This document shows, piece by piece, positions 1 to 7,603 of a DNA stretch of 64,000 bases (position 1 is its first letter; each line of letters begins with the position of its first letter). The stretch covers positions 92,442,001 to 92,506,000 of the forward strand of contig OX597814.1 of assembly GCA_951406725.2 (NCBI GenBank), read 5' to 3'. Made by a program: the position numbers and the translations under genes. Source of the DNA: Octopus vulgaris. Lineage: Eukaryota. A model generated the notes under the pieces. That model made no database searches, was not told the origin of the DNA, and saw only the letters and a program-made list of their open reading frames with translations.

Positions 1-738
1 TTTTCTCCGACCACTTAACTGCTGTAGTCAAATGAAATCCTCCATCGAATACCATACTTTATTGTCAGTAAAGCAGCGTGCTTTTGTTAGAAATTAATTT
101 GTTTATTGTTCTAAAAAGACAATGAATTGTCGGCGTCGGTAAAACGTCGAATGTTCATTTTAGTGTCAATCCTCTACGTCGCATGTTTGAATTTTGCCTC
201 ATTCAACTTTGTCGTTCATCTTACTGAGTTTGATAGAACAAAATACTTGTAAAGTACTGGAGTCGATTTAATTAACCAGCCCCCGCTCCAAAATATTGCT
301 GGTCTTACGCGTAAAACGGTATTTAATTAAATAACACAAGGGATTTTTACTCGTCACTCTACTGATTACAATTTCTAACGCTTTTTTACGATATGTACAA
401 GGCTTGAAATTTTGTGGGGAGATGTTAGCTGATTACATCACGACCCCAGTACTCGACTATTATTATTAAATCGATATATGAACTATTAGCATTATTATTA
501 ATAAATCGATATATGAACTTCGAATGCAAGGTCAAACTGAAGTGTTTGACCCGAACAAAAAAACAGTGTAATAGGTGTACAACATGTAGTAAACGAATAT
601 GAAAAAAAATGCGCGCTCAGGAACGGGGGATGGGGGAGAGGACTCGGAAAATTTACATCATCACCATGACCTTTAAACTCCAGTATTTGACCCGAGCAAC
701 AAAAAAAGTTTTAAATAGTGTAAGGTCGACTTGGCCTT

Positions 739-2409
739 GGTGAACTGGGCACCAACAGTGCCGGCAGCGTCGAGGCAGCCCGATGCTGCTGTCTCTTAAG
801 GTAACCATACCGTCAGGGCGGGCGACCCCGGTACTACCTTGTTGTGGTGAGAAAGTTTACACCCTTTGAGAGAAGAGCAGTTCGTGATGGCATGTCCAAC
901 TCGCGCAGGTCCCTCTCGTACGAGAGTAGCCAATGGTACCGAACCCCCACCCCCCGGCTGCCGTGAAACCGGAGCCCCGAGATGTTGTTGGGTCATCTCG
1001 AGTCGTGTGATAGCCCACCCCGGGGAATCGGCCACGATCGGGACACCCGTCGGGTACAAGCCGACCAACTAGGCGCCGGCCCGTAACTGGTTGCCGTGGG
1101 CCCGCACCGGCGTCGAACCCGGGATAGTACGGTTACCTGGCGACACAGATGGCACCTCCCCACCCAAGTATACCGGGCGTTTAGGTTGGGTCGTAATCGT
1201 AGCCTCTGTTGGTGCAGATCAGTGTGGAGACATTCTCCCTGGACGGGTGGTTCGTCCACGAAAGCCGGACGTCCCGCAATTGTATGTAGACTCTCACTTC
1301 ACCTGTGGTGGACGGGTGTTAATGTGTAGTCATGTGTTGAAAGCCCCGTCAGAAACGCGACTTATAGGGTCCCTTCCTTTCGATCACACCAATTATAGCC
1401 GCACCCGGGGATGGTTAGATGGATCCGACATGCGCACAGCCACCGACCACCATAAAACACTGGGTGATTAGGTGCGGTTATGATACGTGCATCGAGGGGT
1501 TTGCAGCCGATCCCGTAGGCGAATGTATTCACCCTTTGGACGCGTGATTCCGTCCACAAAAGCCGAGGCCCCACTTGACCTCCGCTCAGTCACCGAAGGC
1601 CTACGAAAAATAGGCGGTGGTGCTGCCCACTATAATATACCAGAGCATCCCGATAAGCGCCAAGTTTCGGATTGAGTGGCTCCGTCCACTATAAAACACC
1701 GGCGTGTTGGGGCAGATGACCCTTCTGCTCCGGTCACGCCCTTCATGTCGCACTAGTTGGGAAGCTCTTTCCTTTGACGGGTGGCACCGCCCACCTTAAT
1801 ACACCGGCACCCCAAGGTCCCCTCCGCCTATTACTGGCCTGCACGGGCGTTAGGATTCGGTGCTGGAGAGAGCCACGGTCACCAAAAGTAGGGGCCCTGA
1901 TGTGCGGCCAATTTTGCCCGGGTCTGCCGTTGGGGTTCCCTACTGCCTCGAAAGCGACCTGCACACAGGAGAGGTCAAGCGTCGGAGAGCACCAAGCTCG
2001 ATCGACCCCTCCCTGTGAGTCCCCCGCTGACACTAGGTTGCAGAGGCGATCATGCATCTTAGCCCGCACGTTAGTTGGGCGGCCTGCCAGTAGGCGATGG
2101 CGTATCTCTCAAGGCGCGACGGCACCGTCCACGGTTAAAAAAACGGGACCGGCTTCGACTTATTCGTGTGCGCGTTAGACTCGTCTCTGGTGTATTGCGA
2201 CATCACCACCCGATGGACAAGGTGCACGTGTAACTATTTGACGTTATGCATCGTGAAATAACCCACGTTACAAATGGGGATGAGCGCCGCCGCTGTGCCC
2301 TGTAGTAGCCGTCTTGGAGACCACAGGGCACCGCTGCGGTACTCTTTCCCTAGAGGGAAAGAGTGCCTTGCGGTACGTGCAGTTAGCCATATGCCTCGTC
2401 ATCTAATTA
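739..2409 (+). mobile_element. GC-rich R2-associated non-autonomous insert flanked by 28S rDNA target-site sequence
   Basis: TCTCTTAAGGTAACCATA at 792-809 and TAGCCATATGCCTCGTCATCTAATTA at 2384-2409 match the conserved 28S R2 site (CTCTCTTAAGG|TAGCCAAATGCCTCGTCATCTAATTA). Sharp GC contrast with the flanks. Interrupts a SINE: AGGTCGACTTGGCCTT at 723-738, resuming as TTAAGTACCAG after about 2420. No long ORF. Confidence 0.7.
788..940 (+). ncRNA. Degenerate HDV-like ribozyme fold (R2 5' type)
   Basis: By eye: P1 GCTGTCTC(788-795)/GAGAAAGT(849-856) with terminal G-U and one mismatch; P2 GGTACT(830-835)/GGTACC(935-940); P3 ACC/GGT; J4/2 CCAAT(930-934). L3 is TTGTTGT instead of YCCTCGY and P1.1 is not evident. 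Confidence 0.45.
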
Positions 2410-5022
2410 AGTACATCTAATTAAGTACCAGTGAAACAATGGAAATCGATGTAATTGACTAGACCCTCGCCAAAAATTTCAGACCTTGTGCCTTTAGTAG
2501 AAAGAATAGTTACTGTGTTCGTCCGTCTTAAACGCACTCTGAGTTCAAATTCCGCCGGGGTTAATTTTGCCTTATTATTGTTAAGGCAACGAGCTCGTAG
2601 AATTGGACATTCTGCGTTCAAATGCTGCCGCATTCGACTTTGCCTTTTAACCTTTCGGCGTCGATAAAACAAGCACCAGTTGACTACTGAGGTTGATTTA
2701 ATCGACTTATCCCGTCCCCCAAAAGTGCTGGCCTTGCACCAAAATTTGAAAATATTATTAATGCGGTGAGCTGGCAGAATCGTTAGCACGCCGGACAAAG
2801 TCCTGAGCAGTATTTGTCCATCTTCAAGTTCTGAGTTCAAATTTCGCAGACTTTGCTTTTCATCCTTTCGGGATCATGAAATATGTATCAGTCGAGTACT
2901 GGGGTCGTGATGTAATCAGCTAACATCTCCCCACAAAATTTTAAGCCTTGTACCTATTGTAAAAAAAGCATCAGAAATTGTAATCGGTAGAGTGACGAGT
3001 AAAATTCCTTGTGCTTTTTAATTAAATACCGTTTTGTACTGAGTTCAGATCCTTTTATTGTTCGTTCACCTTTCCTCTTTCCGCTACAGCTGTTATCGAT
3101 ATAATCAACCAATTCCCTATGTCTTAATGTGTATTAGTATGTCAAGGTAAGAAATAAATATTACTCTGGGGGTGTTACAGAACGAAAAAAAAAGATAGTA
3201 TACGGGACAACATATCTTATCGTATTTAATGGGGTTTTTTTTCTTTTTGTTCTGAGTTCAAATCCCTCTGATAAAGACATTTTTTTTATCGTTCTGAGTT
3301 TTATGAAAGAAAAAATCAGTGACGTACTAGAATCTATATAATCATCTATACCTCCAACCAAAATATGAGAACGTTTATCTATCAATGTTAGAAATTGAAA
3401 ATTATTGTTGAAAGCAGTAAATGGCAAAACTGATAGAGCGTCAATCAGAAAATGCATTTTACTCCGTTCTTGTCGAGTGTCAATCAAAAAGAGATAAGAA
3501 TAATTTAATAACAGTCGAATAATTCTGAAAACTGCAGAACACAAACCATACTTAAGTTGGTAAGTGAAAAAGTCCTTTAGCATAAATTAGATGGCGATTT
3601 ACTGACGATGGCGAACATCTATGGTAAACAACTTCGGGTGTGCTTTTGGTCTTTTAAAACCTTAACTTGGGTATAGTCCATTCACAACCGTCATGCCTTC
3701 TCGACGACAAATAGATACAGATTTTTGTGTGAAAATAATTCAGGTATTCCCGTAATTTTATTTTCAGTAACTGGATTGCTGCCGCGCTGGGGCACTGTCA
3801 AAAAAGGTTTAGTCGATCGAAGTGATCACAGTCATAACTTTTTATTTTTAGTCTGATAGCTGATCCATACATCACTTTTTGTTGAGCTGTTAAGTTACGG
3901 GGGACATAGACACACGCCAGTTGTCGAGTAAGGAGAGACAAACGCAAACACAAATACTTAGATACACACACGCAAAGATACAGATACAGACACAAGCACA
4001 CAAATACAGACATACACACACATACACACACAATCATGGCTGGTTTCGGCACAGTATCCGTCGACCAAATTCATTCATAAAAACGGTTTTGTTGTAGATG
4101 ATACTTCCCCAAGGTGCTACTCTATGGAACGGAACCCGTAATCACATAGATACAAAGATCTTGTTAACTACAGCCATACGTGTACCATGCCTCATAAGAG
4201 AAATTTAATTAATAATCTTGAAAATTCCATACATTTTATTTTGGTGAGAATGAGCTACACAATCGTCATAGAATCCACCTCAATGGAACGTGCCTTGACA
4301 AAAGCTAAATGAAAATATTTCCGTTCAAGAATTGAATGAGTTGCACAATGTTACCGTGATATGATGACGATTTCTTTCGTAAGCACAGAGCAACTGGTTT
4401 TCGTCGAAGAATGAGACAGCGAAAATTTAATGACATTTTGAAAGATAATTAGTTCCATTAATTTGTTATTATTTAGCCTCAATTAATTTATCATGGAGTA
4501 GAACGCTGAGCATTCCAGCCAAGGCTATCCCGTCATTTATATAGGATTAGTTATATAAGGCTCTATTATGTACAGTTCCTTTACGGAAATTAGCTGATAG
4601 AATCGCTTGCACGACGGACAAAGTGTTTAAGAGTCGATAGTAATCCATCATTTGAATTAGATTCGACCTCTATTTCTAGCAGATTGAGAGACAACTTAGA
4701 TGCTACCTTAATGTTGTTGAGTGTGAATAATGGACTTAAGCAATCCAGCTATGACCATTTCATCATTGTTCAAAGGTACATCATCCATGTCAGCATCATT
4801 TTCATTAATCTTTTAAAAAATGATAAAGCATCAGTAATCAACTTAGGGTCCACAAGATAGCACTGGTTGTCTCTTAGCTGTGTTCAAAATATCAAAAGGC
4901 TTTTGTGTAAAATATAGATACAATTATAGTTACATACCTTTCAACTAAGAAATAAAACTGGGAAAATGAATTTGTTATTACTTTATAAAATCGGCTTGTT
5001 GGATATATGGCTTTCACTAAAG

Positions 5023-5430
5023 TGGTGAGCTGGCAGAATCGTTAGCACGCCGGGCGAAATGCTCAGCGGTTTTTCGTCTGCCGTTACGTTCTGAGTTCAA
5101 ATTCCGCCGAGGTCGACTTCGCCTTTCATCCTTTTGGGGTCGATAAATTAAGTACCAGTTACGCACTGGGGTAGATATAATCGACTTAATCCGTTTGTCT
5201 GTCCTTGTTTGCCCTCTCTGTGTTTATCCCCTTGTGGGTAGTAAAGAAATAGGTATTTCGTCTGCGGTTACATTCTGAGTTCAAATTCCGCCGAGGTCGA
5301 CTTCGCCTTTCATCCTTTCGGGGTCGATAAAGTACCAGTTACGCACTGGGGTCGATGTAATCGACTTAATCCGTTCGTCTGTCCTTGTTTGTCCTCTCTA
5401 TATTTAGCCCCTTGTGGGCAATAAAGAAAT
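5023..5430 (+). mobile_element. tRNA-derived SINE family A (Meta-domain-like core), dimeric copy
   Basis: GGTGAGCTGGCAGAATCGTTAGCAC...GAGTTCAAATTCC head and GCCTTTCATCCTTTCGGGGTCGATAAATTAAGTACCAG core. Further copies at approximately 2757-2945(+), 6640-7000(+), 11220-11400(-), 18584-18795(+), 22820-23240(-), 50260-50408(-), 50830-51040(-), 53980-54192(-), 56590-56810(+). Confidence 0.85.
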
Positions 5431-5870
5431 ATATATGGCTTTCAGAAGCATCGGCTCCGTGAAAAAAATGTTGAGAACCAGTACAACAGGATACAAATGG
5501 AGAGCGGTGTTAACTGATATTTTTAGTAGGTTGCATCACAACATAGAGGCTTCAAGATTGTCTTGTAAAGTGAAGTAGTTCTAACTCATATCATAAGAAA
5601 GCTTTCCCTACAAACTTCCATAACATGGTTGTCAATAGAAACATGTGGTTTTGCAACACAGAATTAGAACAAAAGTCTCCGAAATGCAAGCCTTCAAAAG
5701 AATAGAAGATTGTAATAAAATGAGAAAGATAAATGTACGCTATTGACGTTGCTTGATCCCAGGTCTCATTTACATATAAAATAAGCAACCTCTATGAAAG
5801 TCTATTACAGTTCAGTACCCTCCATCCCAATTCGCTGATGATAATGAAAAGTAAACAAGCTCAAAGAAAA

Positions 5871-5901
<31 letters not shown>

Positions 5902-7603
5902 CTACGGGCTTCTTCCAGCCTCCGTCTGTCAAATCCACTTACAAGGCTTTGGTCGGACTGAGGCTAAAGTAGAAGACTCAAAGTGCCACACAGTGGGACT
6001 GAACCCTGAACCATGTGATTGGGAAGCAAACTTCTTACCACACAGCCACGCCTACACCTATTTGCAAAAATTCAATTTTTCTGCAAGTTATGAGGAAACA
6101 AAATGTTAGTGATCGGAACACTTGTGTGGGTACGTCGCTTTAAATAATGTTTTGTTTTGAATAAATTTAAGTAGACCAAGATGCGTCAAAAGCTGAAATA
6201 CAAAGACCTTCCTCGTTGTTGTTGTTATTGTGTGTTTGTTTGTGTTATTTGTTTGATTTTTGGTTTTTTTCTTTGTTCAGCTTTTGTTTTCGAAAACTAT
6301 TCTTGAAATACATTGTAATTTATTATAAGAATGTCTGTAGGAAAATAGATTTCGCAATGCGAAATTATGAAAAATTTTCAGGTCAGGCAAGCACACTCTT
6401 TGTTTAGTCCCATGTTTCATTTACAAACCAAATAGGCAACATCTCCGTAATAGTGTTTTTTTGGCTCTATGGAGTTGCTATTGTGGTGTCGTTTTTTCTT
6501 TTTATTGTTTTATCTGGCTAAAGGTCGCGGATCATTTGGTCCCTGACAACACAGGAAAAATAAATGTTTAAATTTTATTTCTATATTATTGACTATCGCA
6601 GTATGCAAGGTGTTTCAACATCATATATGTTTTATATACAGGCGAAATGCATAGTCGTATTTCGTCTGCCGTTACGTTCTGAGTTCAAATTCCGCTGAGG
6701 TCGACTTTGCCTTTCATCCTTTTGGGGTTGATAAATTAAGTACCAGTTACGTACTGAGGTCGATATAATCGACTTAATCCATTTGTCTGTCTTTGTCCTC
6801 TCTGTGTTTAGCCCGTTGTGGGTAGTAAAGAGATAGGTATTTCGTTCAAATTCCGCCGAGGTCACATTCGCCTTTTATCCTTTCGGGGTCGATTAAATAA
6901 GTACTAGTTACGCACTGGGGTCGATGTAATCGACTTAATCCCTTTCTCTGTCCTTGCTTGTCCCCTCTATGTTTAGTCTCCTGTGGGCAATAACGAGATT
7001 AATATAAAAGTAATTTCCATTTCTGCATTTAAGGCTACATAGTTGACTTTTTCACCATGTGGCTTTCTCGCCTTTCTGGAACGTCTTCCTATTTATCGAA
7101 TTGGTTCAGCCCTACTTCAAGTAATGGTTCTATAGTTCTCAATTGCTTAAATTGTAAACAAGATGCGCCCGTATATCACAAGCAGCCTCAAAAAAAAAAT
7201 GTTAAGAAACATTAGAATCGCTTTTGAACACAGTTAGTTCCAAGAAAATCCGAATAATTAACTCAAATTTTTATCGAGTCCCTGCTTTGTGTCAACTCTT
7301 GTATCAGGAATTTGATTTTCATTATCGTCCACATTTCGAAAAAGTCTCACTATAATATTTTATTATTCATGAACTCATTTCGCTGTCTGCGTTCTTTGAT
7401 TTTTCAAATTTGCACTTATATCTTCTCTCTGTTGCCAACACAGTTGAGCAAAAAAAAGATTGATAAAAGCATTTGAATTGCATCGAAAAGGTCCCCACTA
7501 ATACAGAATGGTTGGCAGCAGGTACTTCAACCAAATTGAAAGAATGATTATCACAGATCGAGAATATAGTTAGACTACTACTACTACCACTACTACTACT
7601 ATA

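Follow-up and report, generated by a model that had tools for sequence, protein, structure and literature searches.

The window analysed here is a stretch of 64,000 nucleotides of the Octopus vulgaris genome (contig OX597814.1, positions 92,442,001 to 92,506,000, forward strand). Close to its start lies an element of about 1.66–1.7 kb (~721–2409), which belongs to a family termed family A. The element carries a predicted hepatitis delta virus (HDV)-like ribozyme near its 5' end, a hairpin-pseudoknot motif that recurs in its interior, and a 3' end that resembles the 3' untranslated region (UTR) of the host's R2 retrotransposons and is followed by a short piece of the 28S ribosomal RNA (rRNA) gene. 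It is probably a decayed off-target copy of a non-coding R2 parasite that was once resident at the R2 site of the 28S genes.

The original prediction described a GC-rich island of 1.67 kb without a sizeable open reading frame (ORF) and without reverse transcriptase (RT) or endonuclease motifs, and this description is borne out. The GC content is 52–64% across 801–2400, compared with 29–45% in most flanking 200-nt windows. The longest stop-free frame has 152 amino acids (aa) (1720–2178, forward strand) and is well under 140 aa when counted from the first ATG, and a Pfam search of the six frames gave no match at E ≤ 0.1. The longest frame of the family consensus is 125 aa, compared with a shuffle median of 151, and a tblastn search of the consensus with R2 proteins found nothing below E 0.03. 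No zinc-finger, Myb, RT or endonuclease ORF and no recognisable remains of one are present, the interior is not collinear with an R2 ORF, and the element is unlikely to be an autonomous or degenerate R2. It is not a ribosomal DNA (rDNA) spacer or rRNA pseudogene either, because the family profile has no match at E ≤ 1 on a 20-kb stretch with a full rDNA unit and an Rfam search of window positions 1–6000 returned AT-repeat microRNA noise but no ribozyme or rRNA. DNA transposons of the Pokey type insert at TTAA. A DNA transposon or miniature inverted-repeat transposable element at TTAA was rejected, as terminal inverted repeats are absent among the 15 inverted pairs listed. No clear target-site duplication surrounds the window copy.

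The ends of the element and the host R2 elements

The rDNA array of the host (contig C20) has a unit of 18.4 kb, and six of its seven assembled units have an empty R2 site, the seventh carrying an autonomous R2. The R2 copy L076 lies inside this array with 28S on both flanks and encodes an ORF of 1276 aa with an RVT_1 domain (Pfam). By eye, its zinc fingers are of the CCHH, CCHC and CCHH types, followed by a Myb-like motif, which indicates the three-finger layout of the A clade. Potential helpers are available in the host: two ORFs, 1276 and 1311 aa long, combine RT with three zinc fingers, and the autonomous elements measure 4.6–4.8 kb. In an RT tree of 13 rows, a third, decayed R2 lineage stands apart, with L190 and L211 joined at a support of 0.99, and much decayed R2 is scattered in the genome. 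The genome harbours at least three R2 lineages and possibly five (L076, L070, L074, L190, L202, L199), with RT identities between them of roughly 40–65% at the amino-acid level, broken rows included; two R2 copies have intact ORFs (1276 and 1311 aa). Tandem clusters of lineage-2 R2s with short 28S pieces in between are found at C18:79.80–79.85 Mb and C29:25.60–25.70 Mb (L119–L122, L169–L189). Towards the end of its 28S gene, about 2,100–2,200 nt 3' of the R2 site, the L081 rDNA unit contains a second stretch of ~45 nt that is 85–88% similar to the sequence flanking the R2 site on both sides.

The right end of the element (2384–2409), for which the original prediction had noted a match to canonical 28S, also matches the 28S of this host downstream of the R2 site, and the chance of such a match in the window is about 2e-9. 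Of 26 exact matches to this downstream 28S tag, 6 are empty sites, 11 belong to copies or fragments of R2s from two lineages, 5 to inserts of a second long R2 derivative (family B, described below), 2 to family-A loci and 2 to bare pieces of rDNA. The element ends at the TAGCC junction, as do 16 R2 or R2-derived inserts among these matches. The sequence upstream of the tag aligns with host R2 3' UTRs, an alignment that the original prediction had proposed as a check: the family profile matches the L076 3' UTR (E 3.9e-9), the consensus is 79% identical to the L076 3' end over 73 nt (E 1.5e-8), and the L190 3' UTR is 66% identical to the family over 167 nt that include pseudoknot copy 8 (E 5e-9), with L229 behaving likewise. 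Judged by these alignments, the best candidate for the closest relative of the 3' end is the decayed third R2 lineage. The segment 2245–2409 folds better than shuffled sequence (z −4.75, 0 of 200 shuffles). Between the R2-like end and the tag lies a 3' extension, whose copied unit is the ~31-nt hinge-stem tail and whose relic TAGCC stands at the spacing seen in R2s; the inverted tail copy (2320–2351) is common to L002 and L003.

The tag at the exact R2 3' junction is joined to an abundant repeat, as expected for the predicted off-target copy with 28S read-through. At this right edge, a 14-bp duplication (2400–2427) overlaps the tag, and the last five tag bases (AATTA) are a microhomology with the flanking repeat. 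Positions 723–739 and the right flank 2405–2520 match two parts, ~20 nt apart, of one abundant repeat of ~180 bp; two tandem 180-bp copies of the same repeat occupy 5068–5431, and many more are present in the window. Homology to this repeat may have guided the insertion.

On the left, TCTCTTAAGGTAACCATA at 792–809 agrees with the 28S target in 16 of 18 positions; it is the sole such match in 64 kb and had no equal in 100 shuffles. The motif is therefore present as predicted, but the element is not bracketed by one split target site, since it reaches 721–740. In a sister subfamily, the equivalent of 789–818 is a near-intact 28S stretch from −11 to +35 ahead of ribozyme helix P2. The left motif of the window is a decayed 28S duplication common to other copies, and it is internal to the element rather than its insertion edge. 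From 721 onward the sequence reads TAAGG, the last five 28S bases before the R2 site. Because 723–739 also resembles the right-flank repeat (16/17), the 5' edge may lie either at 721–726 or at 740. Three stages of 5' extension are represented in the family: the intact duplication to +35, the decayed duplication, and the decayed duplication with an additional ~70 nt (three copies).

The segment 829–941 can be aligned to ribozymes from family B and from each of the two R2 lineages sampled, in accordance with the predicted 5' HDV-like ribozyme and with the suggestion that the host's autonomous R2 5' UTRs should align there. Helices P2, P3 and P1.1 are paired in 89.4% of 132 cells, 14 of which are altered on both sides; none of 500 shuffles paired as well, and slid controls reached 24–44%. 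P3 is paired in 12 of 12 rows with a change from A-U to G-C, the single P1.1 pair is kept in 12 of 12, and P2 is paired in 83% of cells, though in three lineage-1 rows the register is shifted by one column. The ribozyme structure emerges from this covariation, and self-cleavage is predicted from it. The 3' strand of P1 (P1') is GAGAGAG in most copies, and its sole 7/7 partner within the upstream 40 nt lies at 28S −11 (−11 to −5), so that the P1 helix predicts a cut at −11, in agreement with the 5' ends of the relatives. Position 934 is T in the window but A in contigs of three other runs; because A would pair in P2, the T looks like a recent private change.

These 5' ends were collected from the family loci and from a genome-wide ribozyme search with a 25-nt pattern allowing ≤2 mismatches. 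Among 16 family loci with ribozyme sequence, ten start in 28S, at −11 (L091, L114 and L099, decayed), −9 (L088, L092, L095), −6 (L089, L090) or 0 (L087, L097), three carry a 5' extension, and three are cut within the ribozyme. Their upstream 28S is never longer than 11 nt, compared with 52–1160 nt in 8 of 17 other ribozyme loci. Because ten relatives start between −11 and 0 and none farther upstream, we infer that the copies were made from RNA excised from a 28S co-transcript.

Dispersed copies and their mode of spread

The genome searched comprises 2.8 Gb in 227 contigs. Of 77 candidates from a DNA search, 40 were scored, and searches with the 5' end and with patterns then added loci. Apart from the window copy, the scored candidates are all partial and 65–87% identical. 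In total, 40 family-A loci besides the window were analysed; they are dispersed and non-coding, with identities to a consensus of 72–94%, differ by about 8–22% from a mixed-subfamily consensus, and are mostly fragments with both ends cut. Overlapping copies tile the entire element, and the window copy is the sole end-to-end member found, running from the ribozyme through the 28S tag. The genome search proposed with the original prediction thus yielded further copies of the insert, but none in a full 28S gene among the loci examined. A pattern scan of metagenomes gave no match.

Four sequencing runs, from as many studies and organism labels, have contigs that cover the left junction of the window copy, and two of them cover the right junction; the insertion is therefore shared, which excludes an assembly artefact. 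Compared with run contigs at 80% likeness, the window copy with its flanks differs by about 1% in three runs. Family pieces listed from these contigs have depths like those of their flanks, and the loose contig ends listed were dominated by flank repeats. Among the runs listed as carrying the sequence there was no RNA run. In several copies (L091, L092, L010, L015, L030/L096), an inverted internal segment is joined to a forward part, which suggests template switching during insertion.

Template jumps are documented for R2 (PMC3414825), and one rival explanation is that an unrelated dispersed repeat or processed rRNA chimera acquired its 28S pieces and R2 ends by single template-switching events. 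The resemblance of 723–739 to a host repeat and the many fragments cut at both ends would fit such an origin. However, overlapping independent copies from at least two subfamilies link the ribozyme, the interior and the R2 3' end, and both 28S junctions lie at R2-specific positions, making a chimera very unlikely. Hardly more credible is a dead autonomous R2 that lost its ORF by decay or deletion and spread by rDNA recombination alone, like R2Br-deg of stick insects. The divergence of about 8–22% and the decayed R2 scattered in the genome agree with it, but equally decayed R2s still match strongly in tblastn and the consensus not at all, and the element has 1.7 kb instead of 4.6–4.8 kb. Furthermore, ribozyme pairing is kept and 5' ends fall at the predicted cut, which argues for an RNA intermediate. 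The proposal of a dead R2 is thereby largely refuted.

Because its ends match the host R2 ribozyme and 3' tail, family A likely spread by borrowing the R2 enzyme, and its home, as a non-autonomous parasite, was likely the R2 site in 28S genes. Such a parasite would be co-transcribed with its rDNA unit by RNA polymerase I. P1' of the ribozyme, whose structure is given by covariation, would pair with 28S −11 to −5 and cut there. As homology suggests, the terminal pseudoknot, hinge and stem would be bound by an R2 protein of the A clade, for which the decayed third lineage is the most likely source, and the same protein would reverse transcribe the RNA in trans. In the case of the window copy, an RNA extending 26 nt into 28S may have been primed off-target through the AATTA microhomology in the abundant repeat. 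Eight extra pseudoknot copies fill the interior of the putative template.

Overall, the original account of a non-autonomous R2 passenger copied off-target is supported, resting on the non-coding interior, the R2-homologous ribozyme and the R2-like 3' UTR end; its bracketing by a split target site is not, no copy now resident in rDNA was found among the loci examined, and the account overlooked the nine-fold pseudoknot array.

The predicted pseudoknot array of the interior

Nine spaced copies of one motif, eight internal and one terminal, follow the scheme GTGG-loop-CCAC, A-rich linker, CGG (Table 1). Under a strict grammar, 8 matches occur in 1.68 kb, compared with 0.064 per kb in R2-bearing loci, an excess of about 75x. 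The 3-bp loop helix forms in 33 of 50 motif instances, compared with 19.6 in shuffles (maximum 28 in 500), and its variants are CCG/CGG, CTG/CAG, TCG/CGG and CCA/TGG, with one double change; because the instances are related, this excess is suggestive and gives no true probability. The motif occurs once in host R2s and twice in L190 and L229, and seven of the eight extra copies are absent from every host R2 examined. An old internal duplication joins about 1146–1268 with 1437–1566 (consensus self-match 68% over 120 nt). The fold of 945–1900 is no better than that of 20 shuffles (z −0.52). Fragment 5' starts fall at motifs in 8 of 25 cases, where 3.3 are expected (p 0.03; 0.05 and 0.10 in post hoc windows), and the corresponding p for 3' ends is 0.06–0.36.

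The origin of the interior might be explained by plain internal deletion, in which 5' UTR and 3' UTR of an unsampled or extinct R2 were joined and the array was inherited from the autonomous element; the mode of spread would be unaffected. Family B is built in this way, with matches to lineage-2 R2s in the ribozyme, immediately ahead of the ORF and in the 3' end, lineage-3-like 3' UTRs already carry two motifs, and the L190, L211 and L229 copies are all 5'-truncated. However, no match to the family-A interior was found in the 60, 20, 30 and 7 R2-bearing loci scanned, no R2 ORF remnant lies beside 41 of 42 family loci (a weak match with E 5e-4 is present in the L003 flank), and the sampled host R2 5' UTRs lack the motif. 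Plain deletion is thus plausible without being probable.

For the parasite itself, the favoured proposal, held with low confidence and the least certain part of the account, is that extra pseudoknots gave more R2-protein binding or RNA stability and so helped it to compete; the alternatives are neutral duplication and inheritance from an unsampled UTR. Somewhat less likely is that the parasite grew rather than shrank, its nine-fold recognition pseudoknot serving as a multivalent bait that outcompetes the helper's RNA, as one of two independent long parasites on several R2 lineages.

Several observations weigh against a parasite of the R2 site with a working ribozyme and recognition motifs. Of 239 loci examined, 62 match the family (a redundant set); none of these carries ≥50 nt of rDNA or lies inside an rDNA unit, and the family may therefore be extinct today. 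Within the family the 3' 28S tag is present in the window copy alone, and the 3' junction thus rests on one event together with the relic TAGCC at 2306. As relatives of one another, the family copies do not count as independent cases. Many fragments are flanked by microsatellites and may be products of other reverse transcriptases. In HDV ribozymes the preferred base at +1 is a purine; the window copy has GAGAAAG as P1', which pairs 6/7 at −11, and its +1 would be C. Because of the 3' extension, its pseudoknot is ~105–130 nt from the junction, compared with 50–65 nt in host R2s. For the outer pairs of the motifs, covariation is marginal, with 34 of 50 paired against a mean of 24.7 and a maximum of 36 in permutations. 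Host R2 terminal motifs have a 2-bp loop helix in the tested register, with 0 of 14 reaching 3/3, and the purine hinge is present in the terminal copy alone and lacking from the internal ones. A search of the loci scanned for the 5' UTR of the parent lineage found nothing, and the array may accordingly be inherited.

Table 1 Features of the family-A element in the window
Feature	Position	Strand	Basis or remark
5' extension of the window's subfamily	721–788	+	Common to L008 and L009
Decayed internal 28S target copy (792–809), in ribozyme P1/J1-2 region	789–818	+	TAACCAT variant also in L008 and L090
HDV-like ribozyme core (predicted)	829–941	+	Aligned with 11 R2 and R2-derived ribozymes
Ribozyme P2	829–835/935–941	+	Alignment
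Ribozyme P3	836–838/846–848	+	Alignment
Ribozyme L3; P1'; P1.1 partner	839–845; 849–855; 856	+	Alignment
Predicted catalytic C	930	+	Invariant in 12/12 rows
Non-coding GC-rich interior	942–2118	+	No ORF, tblastn, Pfam or rDNA match
Hairpin-pseudoknot copy 1 (predicted)	1149–1176	+	
Hairpin-pseudoknot copy 2 (predicted)	1247–1268	+	
Hairpin-pseudoknot copy 3	1437–1463	+	5' arm partly deleted in window, kept in relatives
Hairpin-pseudoknot copy 4 (predicted)	1544–1566	+	
Hairpin-pseudoknot copy 5	1617–1643	+	Loop helix CTG/CAG replaces CCG/CGG, both sides changed
Hairpin-pseudoknot copy 6 (predicted)	1676–1702	+	
Hairpin-pseudoknot copy 7	1781–1807	+	Layout nearest avian R2 pseudoknot
Hairpin-pseudoknot copy 8	2119–2146	+	Same distance from end in 3' UTRs of decayed R2s L190 and L229
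R2 3'-UTR end: upstream motif, terminal pseudoknot, purine hinge, short stem	2215–2305	+	R2 alignment
Terminal pseudoknot, decayed in window copy	2253–2278	+	Alignment
3' extension: relic TAGCC 2306–2310, inverted tail copy 2320–2351, second direct copy 2352–2383	2306–2383	+	
28S read-through tag from exact R2 3' junction	2384–2409	+	25/26 to host rDNA
14-bp perfect tandem duplication at join to abundant flanking repeat	2400–2427	+	

Family B is a second non-coding insert at the R2 site, of 1.76–1.9 kb (L063, L064, L071, L078, L079, L124; for example about 5127–6893 of L064). Four copies are 95–98.5% identical, and the L063 and L064 inserts are flanked by long 28S at either end. A separate HDV-like ribozyme begins ~320 nt into the insert, patches of which resemble the 5' and 3' UTRs of lineage-2 R2s; the longest frames have 86–172 aa. 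Family B appears to be the younger of the two families and the stronger candidate for a parasite that is still live.

Comparison with known systems

Short non-autonomous R2 derivatives (SIDEs) are described as rare and expected to shrink to a minimum, the Drosophila R2 SIDE having 529 bp with a central part of 197 bp (PMC3414825). Family A resembles it in being non-coding, with a 5' R2 ribozyme, an R2 3' end and a centre without R2 identity, in its presumed need of 28S co-transcription and of R2 protein in trans, and in being old and diverged from its helper. An R2-homologous 5' ribozyme, an R2-like 3' end, the lack of coding capacity and an autonomous R2 in the host are all found, but not the length of ~0.5 kb and the near-identical recent copies of a SIDE, family A having 1.66 kb and about 8–22% divergence. 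Family A differs further in that it is three times longer (~1.66 kb) with an interior of ~1.2 kb of repeated pseudoknots, takes P1 from 28S with a predicted cut at −11 and not at the junction, has an A-clade helper, and is known from off-target copies alone, its ribozyme activity being predicted. On this comparison, family A appears to be a long R2 SIDE-like element that would work like the Drosophila SIDE.

R2 ribozymes that use 28S for P1 cleave 9–36 nt upstream in 28S, and R2s can carry fixed, decaying 5' 28S duplications, in the earwig with 22 bp of downstream 28S (PMC3774820). The predicted upstream cut and the decaying duplication of family A have counterparts there, and its stepwise 5' extension follows the Figure 8 model of that paper, which concerns autonomous R2s, whereas three extension stages occur here within one non-coding family. 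R2Br-deg of Bacillus rossius is full-length and ORF-derived, has an inactive ribozyme and spread by recombination (PMC4370867). Family A is likewise a non-coding and presumably R2-site passenger beside functional R2 but is short, bears no ORF trace and has kept ribozyme pairing. Among molluscs, R2 has been reported from oyster, and in the budgerigar a single copy with an internal deletion (PMC5035012).

The avian A-clade R2 protein has been seen by cryo-EM bound to the 3' pseudoknot (PMC12180492, PMC12222951). The motif of family A resembles the bird and turtle A-clade 3' UTR in its GGUGG/CCACC-type stem, 5–6 nt loop, U/A-rich linker, CG-G-ending loop helix and purine hinge, within ~65 nt of the end, and the host R2s share three zinc fingers with the A-clade R2s of birds and turtle. 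In contrast, there is one pseudoknot there and nine here, the internal copies lack hinge and 3' stem, the loop helix is shorter in the terminal motifs of the host, and folding and protein binding are predicted for the octopus motif. The main text of PMC13188248 contains none of the terms 'non-autonomous', 'cephalopod' and 'octopus', no long SIDE was found in the available text of PMC10946416, and a literature search, with subscription papers, Repbase and Dfam beyond its reach, retrieved neither a long R2 SIDE nor any R2 SIDE from a host other than Drosophila, and likewise no parasite with multiple pseudoknots.

Two long SIDEs in one genome with A-clade R2s would widen the known niche of such parasites. 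The array would be a natural experiment on the RNA module that is used to load transgenes onto R2 proteins, and the effect of extra pseudoknots on binding, stability and competition is directly testable. Furthermore, the dispersed copies record the RNA 5' end in vivo and successive stages of 5' extension, a record that bears on the published model of the ribozyme cut-site shift.
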